Shown: positions 1 through 55,416, numbered from the stretch's first letter. The stretch: 64,000 nucleotides of DNA from Patescibacteria group bacterium (GCA_038064895.1 JBBTSA010000010.1:118616-182615), one strand, 5' to 3'. Translations and numbers: made by a program. The notes: generated from the letters alone by a model not told the origin.

Positions 1-987
1 TGTTGTAAGAGAGATTAAAAAACCCGGTATAAAAAACATAAAAGTTAACCAGGGTAATATTAAGAAAAAGGGATTTAAAAAAATCTCTCCAAGTTCTGAA
101 TTTGTATACAAGTAAAATGGGTTGATGCCTAGTAAGCTAAAGGGTATAACTGACTGATTACTAATAGAGATTAAAGTCGATATATTACTGGATGCTGAAT
201 GTTGGGTTGAAACCAAAGGGGGTACGACTTTTATCGCCGGCCACAACCACCAGAAATGAATACAAAGCATAGCAATCAATCCTATAAACATTCTAAAGGA
301 TATTGACTTTAAGTTATTGAATCCTTTCCAAGGTATAAATACTTCAAATGCAGATATCAAAAAAATAAGCAAAATAATTGTGACAATAAAGGCCAATGCT
401 CCAAAAAGAGAAACAGCAAGAAAGTTAATCAGTAAAAAAATAAGTAAACTCGATGGCTTTCCTTCTCTAATCCACTTTCCCCAAAAAATAAAAAAGAAAG
501 GTAATGCTGCCATCAGTACAAATGTGTTATGAATAAACCTGTGCCAAACTTGAATCATCATGTATGGATTAAACATGTAAAAAAGACCTGCCAGTATTGC
601 CAAAATAACTTTCTCCTTCCCAAGGATACTCAAAGCCAAAAGAAACATTCCGTAACCTGAAAGAAAAAGAATTAACCAAAAAAGTACCGCCTGAATAGCA
701 ACATACGAGAGGCCAACTTCCTGGAAAAGTGATTGAAAAAGTTGTAGAAGTACAGAAGTCAGACCATGCGGAACAGTGGTACCAGGGGCAGCTGCTTCCC
801 ACCATATATATTTTGTAATATCCAAGATTCTTTTTGGATCATAAGATGGCAATCCTACATCTCCTCCACCGTAAAGCAAACCATATTTAAACCAGGAAAA
901 AATAATAATAGTACTAATGAAAGCAAAAAATAAAACTGCCAAAAAATAACTATTAACAAATATTTTTTTAAACTTTTTCACTGACAT
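1..987 (-). CDS. Partial (3' end runs off the window start) polytopic membrane protein, putative GT-C-like glycosyltransferase, family D paralog of 7077..9215
   Basis: My own translation of the minus strand gives an uninterrupted frame from ATG (987-985), starting MSVKKFKKIFVNSYFLAVLFFAFISTIIIFSWFKYGLLYGGGDVGLPSYDPKR... through the left edge of the window. It has many hydrophobic helices. The N-terminal loop motif F.W..G....GG(D/E).G.P.YD matches 7077..9215 (LWFSKGLIFAGGEEGIPFYDLDK). Its start overlaps the stop of 968..2611 in the compact-operon style seen throughout. The tabulated ORFs 317..532(+) and 569..805(-) are spurious by comparison. Confidence 0.55.
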   Translation of the reverse strand, partial: MSVKKFKKIFVNSYFLAVLFFAFISTIIIFSWFKYGLLYGGGDVGLPSYDPKRILDITKYIWWEAAAPGTTVPHGLTSVLLQLFQSLFQEVGLSYVAIQAVLFWLILFLSGYGMFLLALSILGKEKVILAILAGLFYMFNPYMMIQVWHRFIHNTFVLMAALPFFFIFWGKWIREGKPSSLLIFLLINFLAVSLFGALAFIVTIILLIFLISAFEVFIPWKGFNNLKSISFRMFIGLIAMLCIHFWWLWPAIKVVPPLVSTQHSASSNISTLISISNQSVIPFSLLGINPFYLYTNSELGEIFLNPFFLILPWLTFMFFIPGFLISLTT

Positions 988-2611
988 CCTTGTAAGCTAT
1001 AAAAGTATAATCACAAAGTGGCGGAAATAAATAATAAATAGGGGTAGCGGCAATATTTAAGGCATAGAAGAATTTTCTTATTATATCGCTATCAATTTTA
1101 TGAACAATTCCCTGATCACCGAGTAGCCATTTCCATCCGTATTTTTTTATCTTATATCCCCTTTTTTTAAATTCATCAGGAGTAAAGGCAGATTTATGCA
1201 GCTGCCAGATATTACCATCCTCAGCCGGGTGGTAGTGCTCGCCGATAGGAGTAGCAATTATCACCTGTATCTTTGCTATCCTTTCCATATTTTCTAAAAC
1301 TTTCCAGGCATCTTTTTCATCCATATGTTCAAGCACATGAGAAGCAATTACTACGTCAAAGGATTTTGGTGGAAATTTAACTTTTCTAATATCCTTTTGA
1401 ATATATTCATCATGAATTTTATTGGCCTTACCATAAGCAATATAAGGTTCAAAAAGATCTACGCCCACACTGTGACTAATTTTCATACGCAGTTTAATCA
1501 TTTCCATTGGTTTACCTTGACCGCAACCCAAATCAAGAATACTCTTAGCTGAATGATCTATTACCCAAGGCAACGGATCAGTCATTCCCATTAAATAAAT
1601 TTTGAGTGGATCCAATTTCTTATCTAAACTATTATAAGCTCTATTAATAAATGAGCTAAACGGATAAATAAGGCAATACGTTAATCCTGATGTAAAACCT
1701 AACCAGTATTTAATGAGGATGTCAAATCTTCTGCTGCTTAAAATGATCAAGGAATGAGCTATGGTATATGCCGGGAGCAGTATGAAAAAAAATACCAGAT
1801 TTTGGGGAAAAGGTGAGTGTTTACGCATAAAAATCATCTTATTTCTAGCAACTCTGTATGCTCTTTCAGGAGAGGTAATCCCCAACCATTCAATCCAGGG
1901 ATGGACATAGGAACTTTTTTTACCTTGGTGCCAGGTCTTGGCTTCAGAATAATAATAAATCTTAAACCCTGCTTTCCTGGCCCTAAAGGAAAAATCACTA
2001 TCTTCGTAAGGGATAAAATACTCCTTATCATAGTTACCAATTTTATTAAAAACTTCCCGTTTGACCATCCATACGCAACCGCACATTGGCACTTCCAGAA
2101 GTCCTCTATATTGTCCACGATCTTCTTCTCTTACTCCCCAAGCATTCACTCTACCTGTCAGCAAATCTATATCATGGCCTGCCCCTTGCAACATATTTTT
2201 TTTCTGCTTGTCATACAGAAGCGGCGCAATAATCCCTGCATCTTTTCTTTTTTCAAAAGCCTCTACCAGTTGCTTAATCATATCGACCTCCGCATAAGAA
2301 TCGTCATCTGCAAAAAGAACAAAGTCACCTGTTGCAAGTTCCAGCCCCTTGTTTCTACCTTCAGCTGCTCCCAAATTAACATGACTTGTTACCAGTTTAA
2401 CTTTAGGATATTTTTTAGGTAGCCAGGTTAAAAGTGGAGGACGCGAAGCATTATCTACCACAATAACCTCAATTTTTTTATATGAGGATTTAAAATAAGA
2501 GTCTAAACACTCTATTAAATCTTTTTTTCTGTCTTTACTAACTATAACTACAGAAACTAATTTTTGATTTTGCATAAAAAGCTTGGAAAGTATACCAAAA
2601 AGGTAAGACAA
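968..2611 (-). CDS. Fusion protein: N-terminal GT2 (GT-A fold) glycosyltransferase, central transmembrane segment(s), C-terminal class I SAM-dependent methyltransferase
   Basis: N-terminus KLVSVVIVSKDRKKDLIECLDSYFKSSYKKIEVIVVDNASRP and FADDDSYAEVDMI (DXD) are typical GT2. The middle region NLVFFFILLPAYTIAHSLIILSS...LTYCLIYPFSSFI is hydrophobic. The C-terminus has ILDLGCGQGKPMEMI (MTase motif I) and VVIASHVLEHMDEKDAWKVLENM (motif II/III region). Confidence 0.7.
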   Translation of the reverse strand: MSYLFGILSKLFMQNQKLVSVVIVSKDRKKDLIECLDSYFKSSYKKIEVIVVDNASRPPLLTWLPKKYPKVKLVTSHVNLGAAEGRNKGLELATGDFVLFADDDSYAEVDMIKQLVEAFEKRKDAGIIAPLLYDKQKKNMLQGAGHDIDLLTGRVNAWGVREEDRGQYRGLLEVPMCGCVWMVKREVFNKIGNYDKEYFIPYEDSDFSFRARKAGFKIYYYSEAKTWHQGKKSSYVHPWIEWLGITSPERAYRVARNKMIFMRKHSPFPQNLVFFFILLPAYTIAHSLIILSSRRFDILIKYWLGFTSGLTYCLIYPFSSFINRAYNSLDKKLDPLKIYLMGMTDPLPWVIDHSAKSILDLGCGQGKPMEMIKLRMKISHSVGVDLFEPYIAYGKANKIHDEYIQKDIRKVKFPPKSFDVVIASHVLEHMDEKDAWKVLENMERIAKIQVIIATPIGEHYHPAEDGNIWQLHKSAFTPDEFKKRGYKIKKYGWKWLLGDQGIVHKIDSDIIRKFFYALNIAATPIYYLFPPLCDYTFIAYKDVSEKV

Positions 2612-2640
2612 ATAAAATTAGCTCTCTTTGTGAGTAAGGA

Positions 2641-4938
2641 TCAACTTTTTAATACCTTCCAAAGGTTAATCCCATTTCCAACTCCTGACCACATCAGTTC
2701 TGTTTTACAAGTACATATTTTTTGAGGATCTGTTTTTTCTCCTAACACTAAATAATCATAATCATCTTTTTCTCCATAATACGTTAGATCAACATCTATT
2801 TGGAAATTATAGAAACTACCATTTGATCCAGGATAATAGACTTTTCTGTCAATTAGAGCCACTCTGGTACTACGATAGATATCTTCGTGTATCTCAGGGT
2901 AGCCTTCTAAATAATACGAACCAATCTTGGGTGCAATTTGTGAAAGTTCAGCTAAAGTTCCTCCTAGATCTTTTCCATAAGTAAAATAATCATCTAAGAT
3001 CTCCAAAATTACTATATTGTTACTAGTTGTGGATTTATGAATGGGTTTAAAAAAGGAGGAATTTGATAAGTCAGGGACTCTTTGTTTGGGTAATTGAGAT
3101 ATATATGTATCATTAACAATTATATATTTAACTTTTAATTGTTTTAATAAACTAGGATTTAGAGTAAAAAATATGTCATTGTAAGTAGGGCTTGTTCCCA
3201 TCCCATAAAGCACCCTGATATTTGGTGGCCAAAGCGGTGTAAAAGCTCCTTCCTCTCTCAAAATTGAACCATAAGGAGAAGTCGTTGGAAAAGCATCTAC
3301 AAAAATTAAAATCCTATCTTGTAGCTTTATATTATCTTTAACCCACTTAAAAACCGGAAAATCTGTATTTGTGGATCTAGTGTACCAATTATAATCTGGT
3401 CTGGGATAAAGAAGTAAGAATGCTGGAATAATTGAAATTAAAAATATCCAAATAAAGATTGCCTTAAAAAAATAATTTATTTTCTCCCAAAATAAGTAAA
3501 CAAGATAAACAATATTCAAACCAGATAGATAATATGATAACCCCAGTAAACGATTGCCATTTATGTGAAGATAACCTTTGGGTACTATAGCATGATAGGC
3601 AAATAAAGCTATCAGTGACGTCAGGGACAAAATCCATAATCTAGCTACGTTATTTCTATCTTTAGTATATTTCCATAGTAAAAAAGTGCTAACAATAAAA
3701 AATAATCCAGTTCTCCAAGGCATTCCTAAGTTAAAAAAAATAAAAGGGTAATATTCTTGATTATTAATCAGTTTACTTCGTTGCTGAGCTAAGCGATCAC
3801 TCCTATAGTTCTTAGCTGATGGACCATATTCGTCAGGAGGGAAAATCAGGAGATCACTTGATGTGTGATCAGGGTTAAGGACAACATTTGATAGAATACC
3901 TCCTTGGAACACAATTAATAACACTAGTACCAGGGTAAAATTTAGAAATTTTAAAAATGATTTTCTAAAAATAGCAAAAAACATTACTAATAAAATTGCA
4001 GGAACGGTTACTATAAATGTTGATTCATCAGTTAAACCCATAGAAGCAAGCAGAACTGTAATGGTAGCTAGAAAGAAAATATTTTTTTTGGGTGAGAATA
4101 TTATTACTAGTGAGGTTATAAACATACCCAATGTTAAAATACGGTGAGGAAAAAGCATAAAGGATTCCAGAGTGGTTTGAGTGCCATAAGTTACAAACGC
4201 CTGAGGGAGAGTTGGTAGCTTTTGTAACCAATTTAAAATTGTCCCATTGAGATGTGGAAGAGCTAAACTAACCGGCCAAGCAAGCCAAATGCTCCCTAAA
4301 GAAATTAATCCAAAGGCAGCGGGTACAAAATACATTAAAAGAGGGACTTTTTTGACTTTTAAAAACCAAGTTAATATTAAAGTTAAACAAAACAGTCCGA
4401 TAAATTCAAAAAAAGCAAATAAAAATTCATAAGGAGTACCAGTAATAGTTCTGGTAGCAGCCAATAACTCAGCAAATCCTATGTGATAATTTGCCAGATA
4501 ATCAGGTTGCCAGGGAAGATGAATGGGATAATCTCCCCTGGCAAAGACTGATCCTAAGGCATAATGAGTAAAAGAATCAGCACTCATAGCAGGTCCTGAA
4601 GCAGTGATAGTTAATAGGAATATAAACCATGTTAAAGTAGATCCCCAAAAGACAAAACCTTTCTTTGGAAAATATATGGGGTCAGTTTTAGTATATTTTT
4701 TTATAAAAAATGCTCCTGTCAAAAGAATAAATAGAGAAATGTAAAAGTCAGCAGGACCTTTTATTAAGTGAGCTACTAAATTTATAAGAAAAATATAACA
4801 ACTAATCCCCAAGATCGTTCCAGAAGGTATTAATACCTGGATTCGATTTTCTGTTGTAATCCTTCTTAGGAGAACCCAACCACTCCAAAAAAGTGCAGCA
4901 ATAAAAAGAAATGTTATAGGGTAGCTTGTAAAATGCAT
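2641..4938 (-). CDS. Polytopic membrane protein, family A (765 aa). About 13 predicted TM helices plus a roughly 250 aa C-terminal soluble domain; putative GT-C-like glycosyltransferase
   Basis: Paralog of 33161..35473 and 55382..57733. Shared blocks are RRITTENRIQVLIPSGTILGISCYIFLINLVAHLIKG, HLPWQPDY, DESTFIVT and the C-terminus YDYLVLGEKTDPQKICTCKTELMWSGVGNG. No STT3 WWDYG motif seen. Immediately downstream of GT2 4954..5871 on the same strand. Confidence 0.5.
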   Translation of the reverse strand: MHFTSYPITFLFIAALFWSGWVLLRRITTENRIQVLIPSGTILGISCYIFLINLVAHLIKGPADFYISLFILLTGAFFIKKYTKTDPIYFPKKGFVFWGSTLTWFIFLLTITASGPAMSADSFTHYALGSVFARGDYPIHLPWQPDYLANYHIGFAELLAATRTITGTPYEFLFAFFEFIGLFCLTLILTWFLKVKKVPLLMYFVPAAFGLISLGSIWLAWPVSLALPHLNGTILNWLQKLPTLPQAFVTYGTQTTLESFMLFPHRILTLGMFITSLVIIFSPKKNIFFLATITVLLASMGLTDESTFIVTVPAILLVMFFAIFRKSFLKFLNFTLVLVLLIVFQGGILSNVVLNPDHTSSDLLIFPPDEYGPSAKNYRSDRLAQQRSKLINNQEYYPFIFFNLGMPWRTGLFFIVSTFLLWKYTKDRNNVARLWILSLTSLIALFAYHAIVPKGYLHINGNRLLGLSYYLSGLNIVYLVYLFWEKINYFFKAIFIWIFLISIIPAFLLLYPRPDYNWYTRSTNTDFPVFKWVKDNIKLQDRILIFVDAFPTTSPYGSILREEGAFTPLWPPNIRVLYGMGTSPTYNDIFFTLNPSLLKQLKVKYIIVNDTYISQLPKQRVPDLSNSSFFKPIHKSTTSNNIVILEILDDYFTYGKDLGGTLAELSQIAPKIGSYYLEGYPEIHEDIYRSTRVALIDRKVYYPGSNGSFYNFQIDVDLTYYGEKDDYDYLVLGEKTDPQKICTCKTELMWSGVGNGINLWKVLKS

Positions 4939-4953
4939 TCTTGATTTATAAAA

Positions 4954-5871
4954 TTACCCTCTTCTAATTTTAGGTAATGGAATATATGATTTATTATTCA
5001 AAGGATACCAAAATCCAACTATAGTGCCAAAAACCATCTCAAAGAATTTATTAAGTTGACCAAACCTTACAGTTTCAATTAAATAATAAGTTAACAGGAA
5101 TGGAATAAATAAAGTGAAGGTAAAGATATTGCCATGTTTCCTCATGAATAAAACCCTGTTTCTTCCTAAAAGGTATGCCCTGGTTAATACTCTCGGCCTC
5201 CAAATATTTGGATCTTTTGATTGATCATGATAAGCGACAGCTTCGGGTGTATACCAGGTTATAAAACCCGCCTTTTTTGCCCGTAAACAATACTCCGGAT
5301 CAAAATAACAAAGAAACCAATCTTCAAATCCGCCGATTTTGTCAATAACAGATCTTAAATAAAGCATTACTGTTCCGGAATTTTGAACCTCTTTTGCTTG
5401 TAAAAAGTTTTTCTTTAGTCCCCATCCAACTGTAACTTTTCCGGTTATTAAATTCACATTTGCTCCTGCTTGATTAACCCAATTTTTATCGGAAAGATAG
5501 AGAATCATGGGTATCACTATACCTATATCAGGGCGAAAGTCCGAAGCCTCCACCAATTTTAAAATCATATCTTTATCAACTACCACATCATCATCTACAC
5601 AAAGAATGTGATTCTTGCGCTTAGCATGGGCAAATCCCAAATTGTAACATCCGGTTTGACCAATGTTTTTCTCTCCGGCGTAAATCCATTTAACCCATTT
5701 GTATTTCTTTTTACCCTCTTGCATGACATCGTATGCAGGACTGTTATCCACAACAATTACTTCAAGTTTTGGATAATTAGAATCTTTTAAAGACTTAAGT
5801 AATCTAAAAAGTCTATTTTTTCCGTTAAATGTTGGTATAACTGCAGAAACACCAGGTAGAGACTTTTTCAT
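4954..5871 (-). CDS. Glycosyltransferase family 2 (GT-A fold)
   Basis: VSAVIPTFNGKNRLFRLLKSLKDSNYPKLEVIVVDNSP and CVDDDVVVDKDMI (DXD). Length 305 aa. Confidence 0.75.
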   Translation of the reverse strand: MKKSLPGVSAVIPTFNGKNRLFRLLKSLKDSNYPKLEVIVVDNSPAYDVMQEGKKKYKWVKWIYAGEKNIGQTGCYNLGFAHAKRKNHILCVDDDVVVDKDMILKLVEASDFRPDIGIVIPMILYLSDKNWVNQAGANVNLITGKVTVGWGLKKNFLQAKEVQNSGTVMLYLRSVIDKIGGFEDWFLCYFDPEYCLRAKKAGFITWYTPEAVAYHDQSKDPNIWRPRVLTRAYLLGRNRVLFMRKHGNIFTFTLFIPFLLTYYLIETVRFGQLNKFFEMVFGTIVGFWYPLNNKSYIPLPKIRRG

Positions 5872-5892: not shown

Positions 5893-7080
5893 TCACGTTA
5901 TATAACTTAATACTTCATTTGCTCTTTTATCCCAAGACCAATTTTGAGTAATCATAGATTTAGCTTGATTCCCTATTTTGGAATATGCTTTTTTATCTCT
6001 TAAGAGATTCAGTATCTCTTCTGCAAAGGCTTCCATATCATTTATTGGAACTTTTACCATTCCTTTTGGGTAATATGATTTATATGAAATAAGATTAAAA
6101 CCAACTGCAGGTAGTCCGAAAGCCATTGCCTCGGCCGAAGCCATCCCTCCTGAATCATAAAAAGCAGGATGAAGAACAACTTTGCTTTGAGCAAATATTT
6201 TGTATTTTTTCTCCCCGTCAAATACATATCCAAAAAGTACAATATTTTTTTGTAAATTTAACTTATCTATCCTTTTTTTTACATTGCTCATCAATGGACC
6301 ATCCCCTATTAAGGCTAACTTTGCGTCAGATTTTTGATCAACTACCAACTTCCAAATATTTATTAACTCCACAACTCCTTTTTGTGGATGGAAACGTCCC
6401 TGAAAAACTCCGTCGTATATCTTTGGTAATTTTCCTCCGCTTTCTTTGCGAATCCAATTTCCAATTTGTTTAAAATCAACTGCCCCCAATACTACTATTA
6501 CCTTTCCGCTCTTTTCCATGTCAGGAAACTGTTTTCTCTCATCTTCATTATTTACCAATACAAAATCTGCAAACTTTTTTATTAGAGGTTTAATAGGCAG
6601 TTGTACAAACCAGTATAAAAATGCATGCAATCTATATGAAAGAACTCTTTCTCCTTCTTTAAAACCCACCAGAGGATTTGGGGCTGTTTGAAACCACGTA
6701 GCCACCCAGGTAATCTTTGGAAACCTAAGCTTCCAAATCACTGCCGGCAAGGAATCCATCCAGAACTCCGAGGCCGAATACACAACAGTATCTTTTTCAT
6801 TTTTTAATTTGGTTGTGAGAGAAAACAAAATTGCAGATAAAATTACGGCAACATAATTTATAACAAATCCTAAATACTTCCAGGGGCTCATCTTTATTAC
6901 CATAAAAGTTACATCTTTACTGCTTAAACTTTGTCTTTTATACATTTCATAGCCTTCTTCCCAAACATAAATAGTAACCGGGTATAACCTGGCCCATCTT
7001 TTAGCAAATTCAGTCGCTATTCTGTCGCAGCCGGAAATCCCCTTTCCCTGTGCTGTCATACCAATCATTATAATATTCAT
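5893..7080 (-). CDS. Glycosyltransferase family 4-like (GT-B fold, GT1 superfamily)
   Basis: C-terminal motif GGMASAEAMAFGLPAVGF is the E-X7-E region of retaining GT4 enzymes. The tabulated ORF extends to 7116; the start is more likely MNIIMIG (ATG about 7080), which abuts the stop of the upstream gene at 7077 (ATGA-type overlap). Confidence 0.7.
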   Translation of the reverse strand: MNIIMIGMTAQGKGISGCDRIATEFAKRWARLYPVTIYVWEEGYEMYKRQSLSSKDVTFMVIKMSPWKYLGFVINYVAVILSAILFSLTTKLKNEKDTVVYSASEFWMDSLPAVIWKLRFPKITWVATWFQTAPNPLVGFKEGERVLSYRLHAFLYWFVQLPIKPLIKKFADFVLVNNEDERKQFPDMEKSGKVIVVLGAVDFKQIGNWIRKESGGKLPKIYDGVFQGRFHPQKGVVELINIWKLVVDQKSDAKLALIGDGPLMSNVKKRIDKLNLQKNIVLFGYVFDGEKKYKIFAQSKVVLHPAFYDSGGMASAEAMAFGLPAVGFNLISYKSYYPKGMVKVPINDMEAFAEEILNLLRDKKAYSKIGNQAKSMITQNWSWDKRANEVLSYIT

Positions 7081-9215
7081 CTTGCAATCACCTTTTTCGT
7101 ATAATATATGATACAAATTAAACTCAATAGTAGAACTGCTCCTTTAGAAATCCGCATTCCCCAATTTACATAATCTTGAGGCTTATATTTTATTTCTACA
7201 AAAAAATTACCTATTTTATTAATCTTCCAACTGTTTGCATAAGAAAAAAGTTTGTTATGTTCTTTAATTTCTAGGCCATCAATATTAACCTGCCAATTTG
7301 GATCAAAATTCTCCAGAAAATATAAATCAAAAGGTTCTTCAGAAGCTATATCAGCAATGTATAAAGTTGGGTTAATCCTTGTGTACTGTACTTTCGCTTG
7401 AGGCGAATAAATCAGGTGAATATCAGATGATATTTCTACTTTATATATATCCAACTTCCCAAAGCTATTAATTTTTTTAATATTCTTTTGGGTTTCTAAA
7501 TATTTTTCAACCGGTTCAAAGCTACCCAATAGACCTACCTCTGGATCAACATCTTTATGTAATATAATATAACGGACATTTAACTTAGCAAGTTCTTCAT
7601 AAAGATGCTCACTTCTAAACTCAGAGTGAGTAATATCAGGATCTGGTCCATAAACTAAAGGCTGAAATTTATTAAATCTTTGTAGTAGAACATTGTAATA
7701 AAGTTTAAGTGACTGGCCATTTTTGCCAATTGAGGGTCGGTCAAATATATACTCACCCGGCTCAATCCCCTGATATGGATGTTCCCAACCACTATATCTT
7801 AATCCATCTCCAGGATTTATCGGAAAATGAATTATCCTTCCATCATCTTGCTGCTCATTTAACCAATGATTTAAATCCGTGTAATAGTTCGGCACTTGTA
7901 CCCATGGACTAATTTTAATTCCTCCAGCAGTAAATTGTCCTGTCCAGATGGGCCAAAGGAAAACTCCGCATACTAAGAAAATGAGTACAAGTAATATTGT
8001 ATAAGAAGATACTGTATTTTTAAATACTCTGCCCATCTTTTTTGAGATAACAGCTACCCCAATTGCAAAAAAGGGTGCATAAGCTATAGTCAAAACAATC
8101 CCAAATTTTTCAAAGGGATTTCTAAATGCCTGAAAAATAGGGAAAGTTTTAAATATTGGCACAAACAACCATCCAGTTGGCTTATTAGCACCTAAGCAAA
8201 TAAATAAAGAAAATAAAAATAAAATTGAGAAAAACAAGAATACTTTTAACTTTTTAAACGTTTTGTAGGAAAAAAGTGCTGCCAAAGGTATTATCCAACT
8301 TATTAATATAAATGGGAGGGAAGAGTAGCTGACACCGAACTTCTGATCTCTATAAAAATAACCTTCATGTATCAGCCTCAAAAGACTATGCAATTGATAA
8401 TCTTTACTTATTCCAGTAAGAGTCCCTACATTCACTTCAGTATTATTTAAGGCCTGTGAAAATTGATTAGAAGAGATTTTAATAAAAGGATAGATCCACC
8501 ACATGTGCGATAAAACCCAACCCGCCAGCATAAACAAAAAATAAATTACAGAAAAAAAAATATTTTTTTTGTCAGGGTTTTTAATTATGTAAAAAATCAG
8601 ACATATAAATATAATTATCCAAAAAGAAAAAATATAACTGGGATTACCAAAAGACCCTGCAAAAAATACTGATGCCAAAAGTCCCAATAAACCAAAAATT
8701 AAATTTTTATTCTTAAGACCCAATATGAACATTAGTAAAACGAATGGAAATAAGGCAAAAGGAAAAAATTGTAAATATAATCCTCTTCCCCAAATTTGAG
8801 TCATAGAAAAAGGATTTAATAAATAAAAAATGGCTCCAATTAAGGGTACAAGTTTAAATAAATTGTTTTCTTTAGAGCTAAGTTCTTTACCAACTGTTTC
8901 TCGTAAGAGAAAGTAGATAGCGATAGTTCCAGCTGACATAATGATAAAAAAGTGCAGAGCTTGGACCAAGAATCCAGGCAGACCGATTAAATAAAATATT
9001 TTTAAAAAGCTAAAATAAGGTATTCTGTTTAAATTTAGTTGGGTTGGTAAACCTCCTGATATATCCTGCCAGGCATATGAAACAAATTGCATAGTTTTAT
9101 CTAAGTCATAAAAGGGGATCCCCTCTTCTCCTCCTGCAAATATTAGACCCTTTGAAAACCATAGAAAGACTATAGTAAGAATAATAAAAATTAATATTAG
9201 TAAATCTCTAAACAT
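7077..9215 (-). CDS. Polytopic membrane protein, family D (712 aa); putative GT-C-like glycosyltransferase with C-terminal soluble domain
   Basis: About 12 hydrophobic helices in the N-terminal 430 aa. N-terminal loop motif FAGGEEGIPFYDLDKT is shared with the partial gene 1..987. The C-terminal roughly 280 aa is hydrophilic. Possibly related to the DUF3367/arabinofuranosyltransferase-like families, from memory only. Confidence 0.5.
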   Translation of the reverse strand: MFRDLLILIFIILTIVFLWFSKGLIFAGGEEGIPFYDLDKTMQFVSYAWQDISGGLPTQLNLNRIPYFSFLKIFYLIGLPGFLVQALHFFIIMSAGTIAIYFLLRETVGKELSSKENNLFKLVPLIGAIFYLLNPFSMTQIWGRGLYLQFFPFALFPFVLLMFILGLKNKNLIFGLLGLLASVFFAGSFGNPSYIFSFWIIIFICLIFYIIKNPDKKNIFFSVIYFLFMLAGWVLSHMWWIYPFIKISSNQFSQALNNTEVNVGTLTGISKDYQLHSLLRLIHEGYFYRDQKFGVSYSSLPFILISWIIPLAALFSYKTFKKLKVFLFFSILFLFSLFICLGANKPTGWLFVPIFKTFPIFQAFRNPFEKFGIVLTIAYAPFFAIGVAVISKKMGRVFKNTVSSYTILLVLIFLVCGVFLWPIWTGQFTAGGIKISPWVQVPNYYTDLNHWLNEQQDDGRIIHFPINPGDGLRYSGWEHPYQGIEPGEYIFDRPSIGKNGQSLKLYYNVLLQRFNKFQPLVYGPDPDITHSEFRSEHLYEELAKLNVRYIILHKDVDPEVGLLGSFEPVEKYLETQKNIKKINSFGKLDIYKVEISSDIHLIYSPQAKVQYTRINPTLYIADIASEEPFDLYFLENFDPNWQVNIDGLEIKEHNKLFSYANSWKINKIGNFFVEIKYKPQDYVNWGMRISKGAVLLLSLICIIYYTKKVIAR

Positions 9216-10257
9216 ATAGAACCCTTTGAGGTAGCTTTCCGTCTTCGTATTTGAAATTAAAATGTATAAAATAGTATTTCCAGTTTGGATTTACCAGGCA
9301 TTTCTTAAAAATTTCATCATCTGAAACTTTCCTGATTTTACTCTGTATAAGTTTTCTTTTCTCCAAAGTATTCTTTATATGAACCAAGTGCCAAAGATAG
9401 GCTTTTGGCAATGTTGCTGCTATATTGAATCTAAGCTTTATAATATTTACAAAAAACCAAAGAAGAAGCATTAAATTAAAATTGAAAAGCATTAGGAATA
9501 AATAGGGGGCGGATAAGTTTCTTAAGAAAGAGCTAATATGATTGCGGTGATTATAGTACCAAATCTGGGGATTGGCTCCTTTCATGGTTGCACTCCACAA
9601 ATGCCATAAATTAGCCCTAGGACAATAAACAACAGTATATCCTGCAAGCCATACTCTGTGCGACAGATCACTATCATCATAAAAATAGAAGAAATCCTCA
9701 TCAAAAAGTCCGCAAAGCCGCGCGGTTTCTTTTCTTATTAGGAAACCTGCTCCATTGCAACTAAAAATATAATATTTTTGTTGATAATTACCGTTGTCCT
9801 TATTTTGTAAAAGTCCGAAATGGTATAAAAAACCCGTATAGGTTATAAAACTTCCCACGTTATGCAAAAAATTTGGATTTTTCATCTGAATTATTTTAGG
9901 TGCAACAATACCTATTTTTTTATCATTTTCTATCATATTTACCATATAAGATATTGCCCTTTTTTCTATCTTTGTATCATTACTTAAAAGCATAATATAT
10001 TTACCTTTGCAAAATTTGAAACCGAAATTAAAGCCCCCGGTTAATCCCCTATTTACTTTTAATTTAACAATTTTTATTTTTGAGTGTGGAAATTTATCTT
10101 TAATGAACCCCGATATATCTTCGGAAGATCCATTATCTGAAACTATAAATTCTAAGTTTGGATAATCCGAATTTAAAACGCTTCTTAGACAATCATTCAG
10201 CAAATCTGTACGATCGTATGTTAATATTAGAATGGAAACCAAGGGATCTTTATGCAT
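9208..10257 (-). CDS. Glycosyltransferase family 2
   Basis: VSILILTYDRTDLLNDCLRSVLNSDYPNLEFIVSDNGSSEDI and YFYDDSDLS (acidic DXD-like). Confidence 0.75.
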   Translation of the reverse strand: MHKDPLVSILILTYDRTDLLNDCLRSVLNSDYPNLEFIVSDNGSSEDISGFIKDKFPHSKIKIVKLKVNRGLTGGFNFGFKFCKGKYIMLLSNDTKIEKRAISYMVNMIENDKKIGIVAPKIIQMKNPNFLHNVGSFITYTGFLYHFGLLQNKDNGNYQQKYYIFSCNGAGFLIRKETARLCGLFDEDFFYFYDDSDLSHRVWLAGYTVVYCPRANLWHLWSATMKGANPQIWYYNHRNHISSFLRNLSAPYLFLMLFNFNLMLLLWFFVNIIKLRFNIAATLPKAYLWHLVHIKNTLEKRKLIQSKIRKVSDDEIFKKCLVNPNWKYYFIHFNFKYEDGKLPQRVLYV

Positions 10258-31350: not shown

Positions 31351-32335
31351 CTGTTCTCTTAATATTCTCGGGACTTACATCAATTAGTTTTCCTACACTA
31401 TCATTAATAGCTTCGGAAATGGCGCCTCGGTTTGCTCCTATAACAGGAGTCCCGCATGCTAATGATTCCAGTATCACCCTGCCAAAACCTTCCTCACTCG
31501 TTGAAGGGACGATTAGCACATCGGCCCCACTATAATATATAGGCAGATTATCCTGATTTACAACTCCTTTATACTCAATATTTTCAGTAGAGCCTTTTAT
31601 TTTATTCTCTAGTGGACCGAATCCAATAATTACCAGTTTTACATCCACCCAATTTTTAGCTGATTCTAAAAGTTCTTCTAAACCTTTTTCCGCAATCAAC
31701 CGTCCAACAAATAAAACAACAAAATCACCCTCCCAACCTAATTTTGCTTTTGCATTTTCCACTCTTTTAAATTTTTCCAAATCTATCCAGTAGGTAAACT
31801 TCTTAACCTTTAATTTGTTTATACCCAGGGATAATATTTCATAAACTTCCTGCCGAGATAATCCTAAGCAGTAATTAGCATTCTTAAATATCCAGCTCGC
31901 AAAGCTTTTATATATTCCTTTTTTTGGAAAGTTATAAATGCTGTGAGTGGAAATTATAACTTTCTTACCAAATAATTTTCCCCAAAACATACCGACAAAT
32001 CCTGCAACCAGGCCGTGAGCATGAATAACGTCAGGATTTTTAAGAAGCAAAACTGCCGGAGTTGTAATAAATAATCCAGGAAAAAGGTATAAAAATTCAA
32101 GGAAGGGATAGGAAATAAGCGTATAAAATAAATTCGGTACCCAGGGAATCCTTATTATAGAAACTCCTTCGCTACTTTCATAAAACTTCCATCCAGCTTT
32201 AGTTGTAAGCGGCCTATAAGTTAGAACTGTCACAAGCCATTTTCTCTTAACAAGTGCATTTACTAAATCATCAAGATGGGTTTCTACTCCGCCAATATTG
32301 GGTCTAAAATGAACAGAGAGTTGCAGTATTTTCAA
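31232..32335 (-). CDS. Glycosyltransferase family 4 (GT-B fold)
   Basis: PSTSEEGFGRVILESLACGTPVIGANRGAISEAI (E-X7-E motif). 367 aa. Confidence 0.75.
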   Translation of the reverse strand: MKILQLSVHFRPNIGGVETHLDDLVNALVKRKWLVTVLTYRPLTTKAGWKFYESSEGVSIIRIPWVPNLFYTLISYPFLEFLYLFPGLFITTPAVLLLKNPDVIHAHGLVAGFVGMFWGKLFGKKVIISTHSIYNFPKKGIYKSFASWIFKNANYCLGLSRQEVYEILSLGINKLKVKKFTYWIDLEKFKRVENAKAKLGWEGDFVVLFVGRLIAEKGLEELLESAKNWVDVKLVIIGFGPLENKIKGSTENIEYKGVVNQDNLPIYYSGADVLIVPSTSEEGFGRVILESLACGTPVIGANRGAISEAINDSVGKLIDVSPENIKRTVEYFYTHRDRLAQLAKKCRNFAERRYSEKNVETIINVYN

Positions 32336-33159
32336 AGGTTTTTAATCCTCCCTACTAGATAACCCAATCCCCCGCCAAGAATTTGAAAAAAAAGCATTAT
32401 AAACATTCCCAAGGAAAGAATTGGATGAGAAATAATTCGATCAAAATTTTTATAGAAAATTGGTCTTAGGAAGTAGATAGTTTTAGGACTAAATATTGAT
32501 ATATGATGTTTTTTTAAATATCTATGTGCTCTTAAAGCATAAAAATATTTCTTTTTTGCCAAATCAAAAGGAGAATTAATTCTTTCATGGTGATAAATAA
32601 CCGCTGATATTCTTCCAAATGCATAACCCAATTTTTTGATAGTTTCCGGCAGATCCCAGTCCTCTGGACCAGTTATGGTTTCATCATATCCGCCGGCTTT
32701 TTTAAAAATAGACTTTCTAAAAAATCTGGCAGCATCTGTTATCTCATCACCTTTTTCATTATAGAAAGAGCGCTCAAAAGCTTTTACTTCTTCCCAAAAT
32801 GTTTTAGCAACAGATTTTTCAGGAATTATTACTCCTGCAAATCTTGTACTTGAATTTATAGAACTAATACATTCCTCTATTACTTTATCGCTCAACTCCA
32901 TATCAGCATCTAAAAAAAGAAGGTGAATTCCTTGTGCTTTTTTTACTCCAAAGTTTCTTTGTGCAGATCTTTCAGGTCCGAAATTATATACTTTATTTGT
33001 AAATTTTTTAGCTATCTTCGTTGTTGAATCAGTTGAATCATTATCTATTAAGATTATTTCAATATTTTTGTAGGATTGACTCCTTAAAGAAACTAGCAAT
33101 CTTTCAATTACCTTTGCTTCGTTTTTTGTTGTTATAATAACAGACACTAAGGGTAACAT
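32332..33159 (-). CDS. Glycosyltransferase family 2
   Basis: VSVIITTKNEAKVIERLLVSLRSQSYKNIEIILIDNDSTDST and FLDADMEL (DXD). Divergent from, and 1 nt away from, family-A membrane protein 33161..35473. Confidence 0.75.
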   Translation of the reverse strand: MLPLVSVIITTKNEAKVIERLLVSLRSQSYKNIEIILIDNDSTDSTTKIAKKFTNKVYNFGPERSAQRNFGVKKAQGIHLLFLDADMELSDKVIEECISSINSSTRFAGVIIPEKSVAKTFWEEVKAFERSFYNEKGDEITDAARFFRKSIFKKAGGYDETITGPEDWDLPETIKKLGYAFGRISAVIYHHERINSPFDLAKKKYFYALRAHRYLKKHHISIFSPKTIYFLRPIFYKNFDRIISHPILSLGMFIMLFFQILGGGLGYLVGRIKNL

Positions 33160-33160: not shown

Positions 33161-35473
33161 ATGAATTATTATAACATTGCGTTTAGTTATTTCAGTATTC
33201 TAACTCTTATCTTCATTTTGTTTTTTACGGGCTTTTTAATTTTTAAAAGAGCGACAACAGAAAGAAGGCTGCAACTTTTATTGCCTGCAGGGTCTATTTT
33301 TGGAATCTGCCTTTATATCTTTTTACTAAATATCACTGCTCACTTAATAAAAGGTATACCGGGATTTTTGGTTGCTCTTTCTATACAGATTATTTTAACC
33401 TTTATAGTTATTAGATTTATTCCATCTTCACCTTTAACTATACCCAGAGGTAAAGAAGCAACAGTTTGGATTCTGACGATATTTTTTTGGATAGTTTTTT
33501 TATATCAAATAACGGCCCATGCTACAACTAATGGCGCAGACTCAGTTTTACATCAATCATTTGCTTCCAGATTTATTAGGGGAGATTACCCTATGCATAC
33601 GCCCTGGCAACCGGATTATACTGCTTATTACCACTATGGGGGGGCGCAGCTACTAGGTTCCTTTCATGCACTAACGGGTGCACCTTACTATTTCATACAT
33701 CCATTTATTGCTTTTTGGATGCTTCTTTCTGTAACTCAAATCTTTACCTGGATCATCTTTCAAAAAAAAATAACCCTTCGGTCGGCTCTGGTGGGATCTT
33801 TACCAGCTTTTATTGGGCTTATCAGTCTGGGTGGTTTTTTTATAGTCTGGCCTGTTAAGTTTCAACTACCTTCTTGGGGAGAGCTTCCTACTTTCTACAA
33901 TGCTCTTGAAGTCTATGGCGCTCCCTTCAATCTGGATGCATTGGTATTTTTTTTGCACCGTTTTTTGGCAACTTCTTTTTTCATTTCCCTGCTTGTTTTA
34001 CTACTTTATCCTAAGAAGAACTTATTATCTTTTTTTGCATTGACAGTTTATTTAGCAGCTATAGCTTTCACAGATGAGTCGGTTCTAGTTGTAACAATTT
34101 TGCCAATATTAATTATCAGTTTTATAAATATTTTTAATCGCTCAATCAAAGCTTTTGCAATTACAATCACTATAATTTCTTTAATTATTCTTTATCAAGG
34201 AGGACTTATAACTGAAACCTACTTTAATAGGTATGGAGATAGTTCTAATATTTTAATATTTCCAGGAAATGGAGAAGCGCTAACTGAAAAATATCTTGAT
34301 TATCGTTTAGCTCAACAGCAAAGCAAATTTTATCACCTTGATGAAAAACTTAAAACCTTCAACTGGTTTCATCCTGGGATAATTTGGCAACTAATTTTTT
34401 GTTTAATATTAGTTCTGATCTTATCTAAAAAAGATTCGGATCCTCACTTAAAAAAATTATCATGGATCTTAGTTTTGTCCGGAATGATTTCTCTTGTTAC
34501 TTTCCATGGTTTAGTACCAAAGGGCTATACTCACCCAAACGGAAATAGATTCTTGGCATTATCTTATTACCTATCAGGTATTTGCTTGGCGTATCTTTGC
34601 TATTTTTGGTTTAGTCAAAAGATTAACTTACCAAAAATAATTAAAGCTTCTTTAAATATTTTAATTGTTTGGATTTTACTCGTATCCTTAATCCCCCCTC
34701 TTATTCAGCTGTTTCCCAGAAAAAAGGATAACTGGTTTATTATCAGACGCGAAGTTGTAAATCCAATCATTAAGTGGGTTGAAAAAAATATCCCCACAGA
34801 CAAAAGAATAGTTGCCTTAACAAGTACAGAGTTTTCTAATTCTATGAATATTGAATTAGTAGTAAAGGCTGGAATGTTAACACCGATGTGGCCACCAAAG
34901 CCTCGCGTGCATGACAGTTTTGATATTAGCCCCACATATGCTGATTTACACTACACCTTAAACTCGCAGGCTTTAAAGGCACTAAAGATTGACTATATAT
35001 TGATTAGTAATTCTTATCTGTCACAGTTACCCAAAGAGCGTCAGCAGGATTTACAGGATACAGACTTTTTTACTCCAATCTTTACATCAGATGATAGAAG
35101 TGTAATAATTTTGGAAATAAAACCTAAATTCTTATCAGAAGGAGAAAATTTTAAAGGCACATTTGCAGAACTTGACCAAATAGCTCCACAAGATGGATCT
35201 TACTGTATAGATTATCCTCCAAATATTTCTGCCCATACTTACAGAATTCTAAGATTATTGCTTTACAATAGAAGACATTACTGCAGTAAGGGTGGTGCAT
35301 TCTACAATGCTAGGATAGATGTCACTTTAGATTTTCCCAGAGATCATCCAGATCGATATGAATTTTTGGTTTTGGGAAAAGATGTAGATCCAAAAATAAT
35401 TTGTAATTGCCAAGCCAAACTGCTTTGGGAAGGGTTAGGTAATGGTGTTAAACTTTGGCAGACTCGGTATTAA
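33161..35473 (+). CDS. Polytopic membrane protein, family A (770 aa); putative GT-C-like glycosyltransferase
   Basis: KRATTERRLQLLLPAGSIFGICLYIFLLNITAHLIKG, HTPWQPDY, DESVLVVT, and C-terminus YEFLVLGKDVDPKIICNCQAKLLWEGLGNG. Collinear with 2641..4938 and 55382..57733. Confidence 0.5.
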   Translation: MNYYNIAFSYFSILTLIFILFFTGFLIFKRATTERRLQLLLPAGSIFGICLYIFLLNITAHLIKGIPGFLVALSIQIILTFIVIRFIPSSPLTIPRGKEATVWILTIFFWIVFLYQITAHATTNGADSVLHQSFASRFIRGDYPMHTPWQPDYTAYYHYGGAQLLGSFHALTGAPYYFIHPFIAFWMLLSVTQIFTWIIFQKKITLRSALVGSLPAFIGLISLGGFFIVWPVKFQLPSWGELPTFYNALEVYGAPFNLDALVFFLHRFLATSFFISLLVLLLYPKKNLLSFFALTVYLAAIAFTDESVLVVTILPILIISFINIFNRSIKAFAITITIISLIILYQGGLITETYFNRYGDSSNILIFPGNGEALTEKYLDYRLAQQQSKFYHLDEKLKTFNWFHPGIIWQLIFCLILVLILSKKDSDPHLKKLSWILVLSGMISLVTFHGLVPKGYTHPNGNRFLALSYYLSGICLAYLCYFWFSQKINLPKIIKASLNILIVWILLVSLIPPLIQLFPRKKDNWFIIRREVVNPIIKWVEKNIPTDKRIVALTSTEFSNSMNIELVVKAGMLTPMWPPKPRVHDSFDISPTYADLHYTLNSQALKALKIDYILISNSYLSQLPKERQQDLQDTDFFTPIFTSDDRSVIILEIKPKFLSEGENFKGTFAELDQIAPQDGSYCIDYPPNISAHTYRILRLLLYNRRHYCSKGGAFYNARIDVTLDFPRDHPDRYEFLVLGKDVDPKIICNCQAKLLWEGLGNGVKLWQTRY

Positions 35474-51651: not shown

Positions 51652-52366
51652 ATTTCCTTTTATTTCTATAGTTATTCCTCTTTATAATGAGGAGAGAAGA
51701 GTTTCGAATTTATCGAAAATCTACAAATATTTTGATAGAACTAACTTAAAGTATGAAGTCATATTGATAAATGACGGAAGCAAGGATAAAACCCTTAGGA
51801 AATTAAATGAAATATCTAAAAATTTTAAGTTTAACCTTATTTCTTACTCCCAAAATCGAGGTAAAGGTTATGCCATAAGAGTGGGAATGATCAAGGCAAG
51901 GGGGCAATACAGATTATTTACTGATATAGATTTGTCTACCCCAATAGAAGAATTTAATAAATTTCTACCGAACTTAAAAGAATACGATATTATCATTGGC
52001 TCAAGAAAGAAGAGGGGGTCAAAACTAATTATCCGCCAACCAAAGCTGCGAGAAAAGTTAGGCAAAGGATTTACTAAATTATCTCAACTTTGTTTAGGAC
52101 TAAATTTAACAGATTTCACTTGTGGTTACAAATGTTTTTCCAAGGAAGCTACAAAAAAAATTTTTTCTAAACAGAGGATTAATCGCTGGGGGTTTGATAC
52201 AGAAATTCTCTTTATTGGTAAAAAAAAGGGGCTTTCTATTAAAGAGATTCCTGTAATTTGGAAAAACGACCCTGAAACTAAAGTTAAACTACCTTTGGAT
52301 ATTATTACCTCCTTTCTTGATCTTCTTAAAATCCGCTACGCAAGTTTCAGGAAGCTTTATGACTAA
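51632..52366 (+). CDS. GT2 polyprenyl-phosphate glycosyltransferase, DPM1/GtrB-like
   Basis: ISIVIPLYNEERRVSNLSKI...YEVILINDGSKDKTLRKL...FTDIDLSTP. 244 aa. Confidence 0.7.
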   Translation: MIKKLPKFPFISIVIPLYNEERRVSNLSKIYKYFDRTNLKYEVILINDGSKDKTLRKLNEISKNFKFNLISYSQNRGKGYAIRVGMIKARGQYRLFTDIDLSTPIEEFNKFLPNLKEYDIIIGSRKKRGSKLIIRQPKLREKLGKGFTKLSQLCLGLNLTDFTCGYKCFSKEATKKIFSKQRINRWGFDTEILFIGKKKGLSIKEIPVIWKNDPETKVKLPLDIITSFLDLLKIRYASFRKLYD

Positions 52367-53316
52367 TCCCCCAACGCTTTAATCCATTTTATAATTGTTG
52401 GTACCTCTTTTTCCAGCTTTTTCTCAACTTTCCATCCCAAAATAGCTCTTGCTTTTTTAGAAGAGGGTACTCGACGTTTAATATCATATTTAAACGGGCG
52501 GACATATTTTACCTTAAAGGGCCTTTTTATATTACATTTTCCCCAAAGCAATTTTGCTAAATCAATCATCCTGATCTCTTTTTCAGAACCGATATTAAAA
52601 TCCTCATTTGTTGCTCTTTCAGACTCTATTGCTAAAATAATTCCTCTGGCAATATCTGAAACATGAGTAAAGCACCTGGTTTGTTGACCATTTCCCAAAA
52701 GTTCTAAAGGATATTGACCGGATAGAATTTTTTTAATTAGATCCGGTATAACATGTGCATAACCAACCTCCTCCCCTGGTGCTTCATTAATACCGTAAGC
52801 ATTAAATGGTCTAATGATAGTATAGTTTAATCCATATTCATCATGAAATGCCTTACAATACCATTCTCCTACTAATTTTGAGAATCCATAACTACTCACA
52901 GGTGGTGGAATTTTTTCTAAATCACTTTCTTTACTGGGAAATTTTTTTGTTGACTCAAAAACCATTGATGAGGAAAGATAAATTATTCTTTTTATTTTTT
53001 TTTCAACTGCCGCCTCAAAAACAGCAGAGTACATTTTGTTATTTTCAGAAAGAATTGTTGCCGGGTATTTGTGGAAATATCCAATACCCCCAATTTTAGC
53101 AGCCAAATGGATACAAATATCCATCCCATCCAAGGCCTTTAATGCAACTTCTTTATTCGTAAGATCAATTTTTAAAAATTCACATTTAAGAAGAACCTTA
53201 GCTTCTTTCTTGCTTAAATCATCAGCTACTCTAACCTTATATCCTTTTTCAAGTAACTGTTTAACAACTTCACTGCCTATAAAACCAGCTCCTCCAGTCA
53301 CCAAAACTTTAGTCAT
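52363..53316 (-). CDS. Extended-SDR NAD-dependent NDP-sugar epimerase/dehydratase
   Basis: KVLVTGGAGFIGSEVVKQL, YGFSKLVGEWYCKAF, IIRPFNAYG. Immediately downstream of the UDP-sugar 6-dehydrogenase. Confidence 0.7.
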   Translation of the reverse strand: MTKVLVTGGAGFIGSEVVKQLLEKGYKVRVADDLSKKEAKVLLKCEFLKIDLTNKEVALKALDGMDICIHLAAKIGGIGYFHKYPATILSENNKMYSAVFEAAVEKKIKRIIYLSSSMVFESTKKFPSKESDLEKIPPPVSSYGFSKLVGEWYCKAFHDEYGLNYTIIRPFNAYGINEAPGEEVGYAHVIPDLIKKILSGQYPLELLGNGQQTRCFTHVSDIARGIILAIESERATNEDFNIGSEKEIRMIDLAKLLWGKCNIKRPFKVKYVRPFKYDIKRRVPSSKKARAILGWKVEKKLEKEVPTIIKWIKALGD

Positions 53317-53321
53317 CTTAT

Positions 53322-54627: not shown

Positions 54628-55416
54628 TTGTGGTTTCTGATAATGTATCCTTCCAAAAGAGAAATGAAAATAAAAAAAATAGTTAGTATAATTCTCACCT
54701 CTTATAATGAGGAAAAAAATATTGGAAGAACAATAAAAGATTGCAAAACTTTACAAAAATTTTTCCCAATTGAAATAATCGTGGTTGATGCCGCATCAAA
54801 AGATAAAACAATAGAAATTGCAAAAAAAATGAGGGTTGACAGGATTATTCAGTTTCCCTTTAAACGAGGCAAAGGTGCAGATTTTTGGGTAGCAGGTTGT
54901 GTTGCAAAAGGTGATTACATAATTCAGATAGATGCAGATCACCAATTTCAACCCTATGAAATTCCTTTGTTTGTTGATTCATTAAACAAAAGGGCTGATA
55001 TTGTGATAGGAACAAGATTTGGTGGAGGAAAAATTGAAAAGGGATCTGTAAGTTTCAGAAACCTTTTTGGTAATTGGCTTATGTCTTTGGCAACTTCAAT
55101 AGCATGTGGAAGGAGAATAACAGATGTAATGGCAGGTTTTAAAGGATTTAGAAGAGAAGCTTTTTTAGCACTGGATTTACAAGAAAGACATTTTGAATAT
55201 GAAGCGGAAACAGTTACCAAGGCAGTGAAAATGGGAATGAATTTGGAACAAATTCCAATTACCTATACAAAAAGGGTGGGAGGAGTCTCCGGCATCAAGG
55301 CTATACGGGATGGTTTAAATGTATGCAAAGCCATTGTAAAAGTTTACTTTAGTAATTTACCAAATTATCATGAACTCTTTGCTAAATCCTCTTTAAAACA
55401 TAAACCTCATTATTGA
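54628..55416 (+). CDS. GT2 polyprenyl-phosphate glycosyltransferase, DPM1/GtrB-like
   Basis: VSIILTSYNEEKNIGRTIKDCKTL...IEIIVVDAASKDKTIEIAKKM...IIQIDADHQFQPYEI. The start is probably MKIKK at about 54664. Convergent overlap with family-A GT-C 55382..57733. Confidence 0.7.
   Translation: MWFLIMYPSKREMKIKKIVSIILTSYNEEKNIGRTIKDCKTLQKFFPIEIIVVDAASKDKTIEIAKKMRVDRIIQFPFKRGKGADFWVAGCVAKGDYIIQIDADHQFQPYEIPLFVDSLNKRADIVIGTRFGGGKIEKGSVSFRNLFGNWLMSLATSIACGRRITDVMAGFKGFRREAFLALDLQERHFEYEAETVTKAVKMGMNLEQIPITYTKRVGGVSGIKAIRDGLNVCKAIVKVYFSNLPNYHELFAKSSLKHKPHY

Follow-up and report, generated by a model that had tools for sequence, protein, structure and literature searches.

Glycosyltransferase modules in the window

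Family A, a set of giant membrane proteins, occurs in three copies (A1, A2 and A3) in a 64,000-nucleotide stretch of DNA from a Patescibacteria group bacterium (GCA_038064895.1, JBBTSA010000010.1:118616-182615). This whole 64-kb stretch is called the window below, and positions are counted from its first letter. It is a single continuous glycan-biosynthesis island of 53 open reading frames (ORFs), with 11 GT2 and three GT4 glycosyltransferases and 13 polytopic membrane proteins, the rest including many sugar-nucleotide enzymes and methyltransferases. By family the roughly 14 polytopic proteins that look GT-C-like, most of them unannotated, sort into three of family A, seven of a second unannotated family, two that resemble AftD, and two others. 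Each family-A gene abuts a GT2 gene matching PF00535 (Glycos_transf_2), and the three pairs are called modules 1, 2 and 3:

2641..4938, minus strand: A1, family-A copy 1 (765 aa), predicted GT-C-fold membrane glycosyltransferase
4954..5871, minus strand: G1, GT2 (305 aa), soluble; 15 nt upstream of A1 on the same strand, in the same operon
33161..35473, plus strand: A2, family-A copy 2 (770 aa), 40% identical to A1
32332..33159, minus strand: G2, GT2 (275 aa), one C-terminal transmembrane (TM) segment; divergent from A2 with a 1-nt gap
55382..57733, minus strand: A3, family-A copy 3 (783 aa), 28-32% identical to A1 and A2
54628..55416, plus strand: G3, GT2 (262 aa), soluble; convergent with A3, overlapping it by 35 nt

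The initial annotation, made from this sequence, had these six ORFs in the right places and on the right strands, with the right geometry for each pair, and it read the three pairs of paralogs (28-40% identity) and GT2s as one recurring module in which a GT2 makes a lipid-linked sugar for transfer by a GT-C enzyme. Structure prediction bears out the GT-C part of that reading. The three GT2 partners fall into differing classes, and module 1 appears to be part of a conserved cassette of four functions.

Family A is a predicted GT-C family

A1, A2 and A3 are true paralogs, with end-to-end identities of 40% (A1/A2), 28% (A1/A3) and 32% (A2/A3) and blastp E-values of 1e-180 for A1/A2 and 6e-85 for A1/A3. 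The motif blocks first noticed in them are present as PWQPDY, PWQPDY and PWQPDL and as DESTFIVT, DESVLVVT and SESIFVAT, respectively, together with a C-terminal domain of about 250 aa and its C-x-C pair, which is however clade-specific (44-45 of the 76 family members in our alignment). Five membrane-domain residues (D121, Q144, H152, E305, R463) and one residue of the C-terminal domain (D588) are conserved in 72-76 of these 76 sequences, position 121 being Asp in 72 and Glu in two. The reported lack of the STT3 motif WWDYG holds, as a regular-expression search of A1-A3 for WWD[YW]G or W.D.G came back empty. No Pfam or NCBIfam family matches A1-A3 at E≤0.1, including the models of STT3, YfhO, ArnT (PMT_2) and Gtr type.

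A hydropathy scan gives family A 11-13 TM segments, the last near residue 510-525, and then a non-membrane tail of about 250 aa. The AlphaFold2 model of A1 (pLDDT 94.2, pTM 0.94), built from the 76-sequence alignment in place of an 11-sequence alignment that was too poor (pLDDT 58.7), contains 14 helices in the membrane and a large loop that bears two short ones, and from about residue 525 it continues as a C-terminal domain of alpha/beta type. In a Foldseek search of the PDB with this model the nine best matches are all GT-C enzymes (DPY19, STT3A, PglB, AglB, AftA, ArnT; probability 0.91-1.0), and the matches after them are unrelated transporters at probability <0.15. The best E-value belongs to DPY19 (1.3e-5) and the best TM-scores to AftA (0.40-0.43) and ArnT. 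These results support a GT-C fold for family A. With no coverage in Pfam or NCBIfam, family A would be a distinct family, as had been proposed; only a remote relative reaches a named model, DUF2298 (see below).

The model shares with the solved enzymes DPY19, STT3/PglB/AglB, AftA and ArnT a polytopic domain and, as in the oligosaccharyltransferases (OSTs), a C-terminal domain predicted to be external. Its sole large N-terminal loop, predicted to be extracytoplasmic, holds two short helices, the first of which starts with the near-invariant D121. This Asp, with the likewise conserved E305 and R463, may have counterparts in those enzymes, whose conserved acidic residue normally lies in a loop after TM1. 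The model differs from them in lacking both the WWDYG motif and any detectable sequence similarity (family-A profiles of 11 and then 76 sequences found nothing significant among PDB sequences, best E=0.84), in TM-scores that are low throughout (0.2-0.43), and in a catalytic-looking loop that comes after the fourth helix and not the first. Applying the positive-inside rule to the short K/R-rich loops of A1 (residues 28-36, 83-93, 192-199, 282-286) would leave both the N-terminus and the C-terminal domain outside, with D121, PWQPD, E305 and R463 at the outer face as well.

Among 5.8 billion proteins a word-indexed search picks out nine relatives of family A, none carrying a name, and repeating it with the 76-sequence alignment yields just those nine again. 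When a profile is run exhaustively against 1.84 billion cluster representatives, 358 members come up, 98 of them at E≤1e-30. The named genomes that encode family A are Patescibacteria, namely Candidatus Daviesbacteria and a more remote branch to which Candidatus Woesebacteria belong, where the entry reads "hypothetical protein." The window sequence is itself matched by a 158.6-kb contig from the 0.1 µm fraction of Hainich groundwater and by an NCBI metagenome-assembled genome. Judged from these searches, family A is most likely restricted to Patescibacteria (Microgenomates: Daviesbacteria, Woesebacteria) of groundwater, and hitherto unannotated. In one metagenome-assembled genome (L003, 53-8367) three co-directional family-A genes stand in a run, separated by an unannotated 442-aa ORF and a methyltransferase, an arrangement that would show the paralog expansion of family A to be ongoing.

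The link to DUF2298 (PF10060), which we take to be a family of "YYY" membrane proteins of Chloroflexi and Archaea in the Pfam GT-C clan, runs through distant members. One of these, P0114, passes the Pfam gathering score for DUF2298 (35.4 bits; cutoff 27.8). Its alignment with family A spans 625 columns (hhalign probability 99.7%), and it keeps the family-A motifs GGD, NFP..W.P, YH.G, E..F, QGG and R. DUF2298 is matched by 5 of 37 distant members, and is the sole recurrent Pfam family among them. A1-A3 and their close relatives fall outside the model, the tie being one of transitive profile similarity, and the match covers just the N-terminal ~180 residues. Family A would thus be a remote, unannotated relative of DUF2298. 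A literature search found DUF2298 mentioned merely in passing, with no function given, and nothing relevant on DUF2298/PF10060 or on GT-C enzymes in Patescibacteria.

Three partners of differing class

All three partners match PF00535 (E = 2e-18 for G1, 4e-26 for G2, 4e-24 for G3), and more specific models separate them. G1, which also matches PF13641 and PF13632 and has no TM segment in a hydropathy scan, finds MftF, EpsD and the rhamnosyltransferase model TIGR01556 as its best NCBIfam matches, with HpsN, PgaC and GlfT1 also matched, and just generic GT2s and chondroitin synthase in the PDB; no match to DPMS, GtrB, ArnC, PpgS or AglJ appears in either. Its paralogs in the window are the GT2 domains of the ORFs at 968 and 9208. 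By these profiles G1 looks like a Leloir-type GT2 (rhamnosyltransferase/EpsD/MftF-like). G2 resembles TIGR04283, its nearest relatives being heparosan/chondroitin synthase, GalT1 and TarS-type enzymes, and looks on similar grounds like a Leloir-type GT2 as well.

G3 is different. Its NCBIfam matches are AglJ (9e-35), Dol-P-hexose transferase (2.7e-23), and then PpgS and ArnC, with scores that all lie below the equivalog cutoffs and so indicate membership in a class, not in a named orthologue group. In the PDB it matches the Pyrococcus furiosus DPMS 5mlz (4.8e-15) across residues 19-224, the whole catalytic domain, followed by ArnC and GtrB. On this evidence G3 is a predicted member of the polyprenyl-phosphate sugar synthase class (Dol-P-Man synthase/AglJ/ArnC-like). 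An SDR epimerase/dehydratase and a UDP-glucose/GDP-mannose dehydrogenase beside it (52363..54572, minus strand) likely supply its nucleotide sugar. The TTG start of G3 at 54628 may be over-extended, as orthologues are 239-258 aa long against 262 aa here.

Since G3 is DPM-type while G1 and G2 are Leloir-type, the three adjacencies are, as far as profiles can class them, three different relationships and not one recurring two-gene module. The proposal that the GT2 acts as synthase of a lipid-linked sugar donor for its GT-C neighbor therefore fits module 3, where the synthase is DPM-like and the pair recurs in related loci, and is unsupported for modules 1 and 2, whose partners group with Leloir-type GT2s in profile and PDB matches, the outcome that the initial annotation had named as refuting it; the recurring module was correct at one site of three.

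It could still be argued that G1 makes a polyprenyl-phosphate sugar for A1 in the manner of GtrB/Gtr, ArnC/ArnT and CsbB/YfhO. G1 and A1 do adjoin within one operon, GT2s of G1 type stay with family A over deep divergence (see below), and the DPM-like G3 also lacks TM segments, so that the missing anchor of G1 is not decisive. We nevertheless regard this as very unlikely: both G1 and its orthologues match the Leloir models (rhamnosyltransferase, EpsD, MftF) over their full length and match none of ArnC, DPM, PpgS, AglJ, DPMS and GtrB, all of which G3 matches, and blastp finds no link between G1 and the five short (235-262 aa) DPM/ArnC/PpgS/PgfS-like GT2s that the window encodes (starting at 19167, 22950, 48331, 51632 and 54628).

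Conservation of the pairings

Judged from the window alone, the GT2 adjacency of all three family-A genes scarcely exceeds chance, because the island is so dense in glycosyltransferases: when the order of the 53 genes (11 GT2) is shuffled 200,000 times, all three adjoin a GT2 in 5% of trials (p≈0.05). Corresponding values are p≈0.11 for DPM-like GT2s beside polytopic proteins and p=0.15 for polytopic proteins beside any GT2. Conservation of the pairings was judged in 40 related loci (given by L numbers).

The A3-type pairing is the most stable. A convergent, overlapping G3 orthologue (73-82% identical) is found in 9 of 11 non-redundant A3-type loci, usually with the UDP-glucose dehydrogenase (UDPGDH) and SDR genes, and the order G3-UDPGDH-epimerase is kept in L005, L008 and L030. 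At A2-type loci (nine) the G2 orthologue always heads a divergent operon of G2, GT4 and two methyltransferases, as G2 does in the window, and its distance from the A2-type gene varies (adjacent in four of the nine, one to two genes off in three, five genes off in two). Within Daviesbacteria an A1-type gene has G1 upstream in L011 only (81% identical); other A1-type genes have a DPM-like GT2 upstream (L019, L024) or a G2-like one (L014).

Two further observations concern the A1 type. In four of four loci (L012-L015) the A1-like gene, ~50% identical, is overlapped at its 3' end by a convergent gene for a methyltransferase 52-56% identical to the product of 30424-31350, which again links family A recurrently with a methyltransferase. 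The 4.7-kb contig L010, also from the Hainich groundwater site, matches window positions 387-4093 at 100% identity and then diverges inside A1; beyond ~4093 it carries unrelated sequence with a DAGK_prokar-like kinase and a 128-aa ORF. It represents either a strain-level recombination breakpoint within A1 or an assembly chimera, and was left out as context evidence.

The module 1 operon and its cassette

In order of transcription the module 1 operon consists of a carbamoyltransferase, a GT2, an AftD-like GT-C protein, a GT4, G1, A1, a GT2-methyltransferase fusion and a second AftD-like GT-C protein. Its members other than G1 and A1 include:

9208..10257, minus strand: GT2 (349 aa), Leloir/PgaC/rhamnosyltransferase-like; upstream of the AftD-like GT-C gene
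7077..9215, minus strand: AftD-like GT-C membrane protein (PF11847, GT-C_AftD, E=1.2e-12); same operon
5893..7116, minus strand: GT4 (PF00534), the most conserved cassette member
968..2611, minus strand: fusion of GT2 (PF00535) and SAM methyltransferase (Methyltransf_11/25), directly downstream of A1
1..967, minus strand: polytopic AftD-like protein, N-terminal 323 aa; last gene of the operon, running off the window

The GT2 part of the fusion is of G1 type (33% identical to G1; TIGR01556 E=5.7e-23). The protein that begins at 1..967 is 1183 aa long in the source contig and has a faint GT-C_AftD match.

In the four Woesebacteria-type genomes sampled (L037-L040) the identity of family A to the copies in the window is as low as 23-25%, and each of the four shows the co-directional order GT4, family A, GT2, methyltransferase with overlapping junctions. 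The GT4, directly upstream of family A, is 49-57% identical to the product of 5893; the GT2 (289-296 aa) has G1 as its best window match, at 36-38%; the methyltransferase has as its best window match the methyltransferase half of 968. L037 adds upstream a GT2 and an AftD-like GT-C gene, like 9208 and 7077 of the window, the AftD-like orthologue being 34% identical and in the same relative position. The same four functions are thus found in the window, where the G1-type GT2 is doubled around A1 and one copy is fused to the methyltransferase. That GT2 and methyltransferase are separate adjacent genes in L037-L040 and fused in 968-2611 is a gene-fusion signal of functional linkage.

Because the four-gene cassette recurs at 23-25% family-A identity, module 1 is to be read, as far as gene order can tell, not as a chance neighborhood but as part of a conserved GT4 / Leloir GT2 / methyltransferase / family-A cassette, flanked by pairs of GT2 and AftD-like GT-C genes. 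A view that the G1-A1 pairing is not conserved, most relatives at 40-50% identity being without it, was dropped once the cassettes of L037-L040 emerged. In a neighbor-joining tree, for which no bootstrap support was calculated, the cassette-bearing clade is sister to the Daviesbacteria expansion that yields A3 and then A1 and A2, which makes the cassette a plausible ancestral setting for family A.

The GT2 adjacencies might alternatively be a by-product of glycosyltransferase density and inherited synteny, with no specific functional tie. The shuffle values given above (p=0.05, 0.11 and 0.15) speak for such an explanation, many A1- and A2-type loci have no adjoining GT2, and A3-G3 loci share a wider synteny (UDPGDH, epimerase, DUF5667, C-methyltransferase), so that conservation of the pair is not independent of it. 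This explanation seems improbable to us all the same, as it would have to account for a four-gene cassette that persists with overlapping junctions in four genomes at such low family-A identity, and for a G3 kept at 73-82% identity in nine of 11 loci.

A proposed role for A1

The analysis shows the modelled fold of family A and its conserved residues, the classes of the GT2 partners and a gene order that is conserved. Beyond these results we infer for module 1 a membrane sidedness, a donor type, an acceptor and an order of steps, in a scheme that we hold with moderate confidence. The GT4, G1 and the GT2-methyltransferase fusion would assemble and methylate a lipid-linked glycan at the cytoplasmic face from nucleotide sugars. 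A1, with D121, Q144, H152, E305 and R463 at the outer face and with its external domain of ~250 aa, would then attach a sugar to this glycan on the outer side. As donor it would use a polyprenyl-phosphate sugar, to be made by one of the five short DPM/ArnC-like GT2s of the island; that this type of donor would serve A1 is argued by paralogy, because the pair A3-G3 is conserved.

The scheme resembles what is found for mycobacterial arabinogalactan and Gram-positive rhamnose polysaccharides, where GT2 and GT4 enzymes of the cytoplasm make a lipid-linked polymer whose decoration outside falls to GT-C enzymes. Module 1 likewise alternates Leloir GT2/GT4 genes with GT-C genes (AftD-like, family A), its GT2s resemble rhamnosyltransferases and GlfT1, and an RmlD gene is present in the island. 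It differs in that no ABC transporter, Wzx or polymerase is recognized in the window, and in lineage (the Candidate Phyla Radiation, CPR) and GT-C family.

Several points weigh against the scheme. The large catalytic-looking loop of the A1 model lies after TM4, as opposed to TM1 in solved GT-C enzymes. No flippase of GtrA, MATE or SMR type is found by Pfam among the 53 window ORFs, the possible candidates being two unannotated proteins of eight (19913-21367) and seven (62854-63975) TM segments. Two close A1 relatives, L016 (80%) and L022 (73%), have a divergent epimerase upstream and not G1, and relatives at ~50% identity in L002, L003, L012 and L013 have no adjoining GT2. Finally, the present evidence does not tell addition of a monosaccharide by A1 from transfer of a glycan en bloc.

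Under the latter, A1 would work like an OST or a ligase: the GT4, G1 and the GT2-methyltransferase fusion would build a short methylated glycan linked to lipid pyrophosphate, and A1 would move it whole onto protein or the cell wall. The architecture lends itself to this, since a polytopic domain followed by an external domain of ~250 aa with an invariant D588 resembles PglB, AglB and STT3, all of them high among the fold matches; the cassette is translationally coupled with two Leloir glycosyltransferases and a methyltransferase; and L037 and L040 have no DPM-like GT2 within 5 kb. Missing WWDYG and STT3 Pfam matches count against the idea insofar as they argue against membership in the STT3 family; the function itself is compatible with their absence. 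What makes en bloc transfer by A1 a possibility on the doubtful side is that by TM-score its best matches are AftA and ArnT, which transfer monosaccharides, and by E-value DPY19, that the paralog A3 is stably paired with a GT2 of monosaccharide-donor type, and that no priming phosphoglycosyltransferase or flippase is recognized in the window. A bolder form of the idea, which we think unlikely, would make family A the founding member of a CAZy-level GT-C family of CPR/Microgenomates, an STT3-independent en bloc transferase whose C-terminal domain, with its invariant D588, replaces the WWDYG domain and which attaches the methylated glycan built by GT4, GT2 and methyltransferase to surface proteins or the cell wall. 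If this were true, the three- to many-fold expansion of paralogs would diversify the cell surface of ultra-small episymbionts.

Other glycan genes of the island

Four of the five DPM/ArnC-like short GT2s adjoin a polytopic protein, the neighbors coming from three different families, which is suggestive but not significant within the window (p≈0.11):

19167-19925 (GT2) and 19913-21367 (polytopic protein)
22950-23657 (GT2) and 21364-23052 (polytopic protein)
48331-49086 (GT2) and 46747-48327 (polytopic protein)
54628-55416 (GT2, G3) and 55382-57733 (polytopic protein, A3)

Two of these neighbors belong to the second unannotated family ("family B"), whose seven paralogs (~525-630 aa, 8-12 TM segments) stand mostly in a tandem array and match nothing in Pfam or NCBIfam:

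21364-23052, family B
35442-37247, family B
37233-39050, family B
39056-40945, family B
40949-42835, family B
44852-46744, family B
46747-48327, family B

Family B adjoins family A in related genomes too. As to kinship by sequence, hhalign shows no relationship of family A either to family B (just 49% probability, 47 columns) or to the AftD-like GT-C proteins (3.5% probability).

An Arn-like block at 21364-27866 holds, in order, a family-B protein, an ArnC-like GT2 (22950-23657), a formyltransferase, a DegT aminotransferase, an SDR dehydratase/epimerase and a second DegT protein, which suggests that a formylated amino sugar is put on polyprenyl phosphate and then transferred outside the membrane. 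The stretch 11991-15523 encodes a HAD phosphatase, two nucleotidyltransferases, a HIT-like ORF (14179-14592; 137 aa, soluble, HFHTH motif; the only additional small ORF found) and an inositol-monophosphatase-family protein, and farther along lies a gene for a GDPD-domain protein (28903-29664); together they hint at decoration of the glycan with polyol phosphate or inositol phosphate. A small DUF5667 protein (50345-50842) with one N-terminal TM segment has orthologues in the islands of L001, L005, L007, L008, L037 and L040, a recurrence that spans Daviesbacteria and Woesebacteria-type genomes. The GT4 ORF 31232-32335 overlaps by 119 nt the upstream end of the ORF 30424-31350; both start with TTG, and one of the two starts is probably set too far upstream.

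Relation to known systems and significance

The logic of a polyprenyl-phosphate GT2 working with a GT-C enzyme is established for three-component extracytoplasmic glycosylation, as in GtrB/GtrA/Gtr*, ArnC/ArnE-F/ArnT and CsbB/GtrA-like/YfhO (Kelly et al. 2024, PMC11127046). Module 3 shares with them a DPM/ArnC-like GT2 beside a GT-C-fold protein and, in likeness to the Arn pathway, nearby genes for a UDP-sugar dehydrogenase, for SDR enzymes and for a DegT aminotransferase. It differs from them in that no flippase gene is found in the window, G3 is without the C-terminal TM helices of GtrB and ArnC, and G3 and A3 converge instead of being co-transcribed; module 1, with G1, does not fit. By these likenesses module 3 is a putative new instance of the polyprenyl-phosphate GT2/GT-C logic, with a synthase that has no TM segment.

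Family A is, on the strength of its predicted structure, a real, previously unannotated and lineage-restricted GT-C family. It adds an unannotated branch to the diversity of GT-C enzymes, and so extends a known logic without adding a new mechanism. CPR/Patescibacteria genomes are about 1 Mb in size; a genome of this class here gives at least 64 kb to glycan synthesis, including five GT2s of polyprenyl-phosphate sugar synthase type. The fold assignment for family A and the cassette in which it occurs provide a testable entry to the surface glycans of episymbiotic bacteria, which probably mediate attachment to their hosts.

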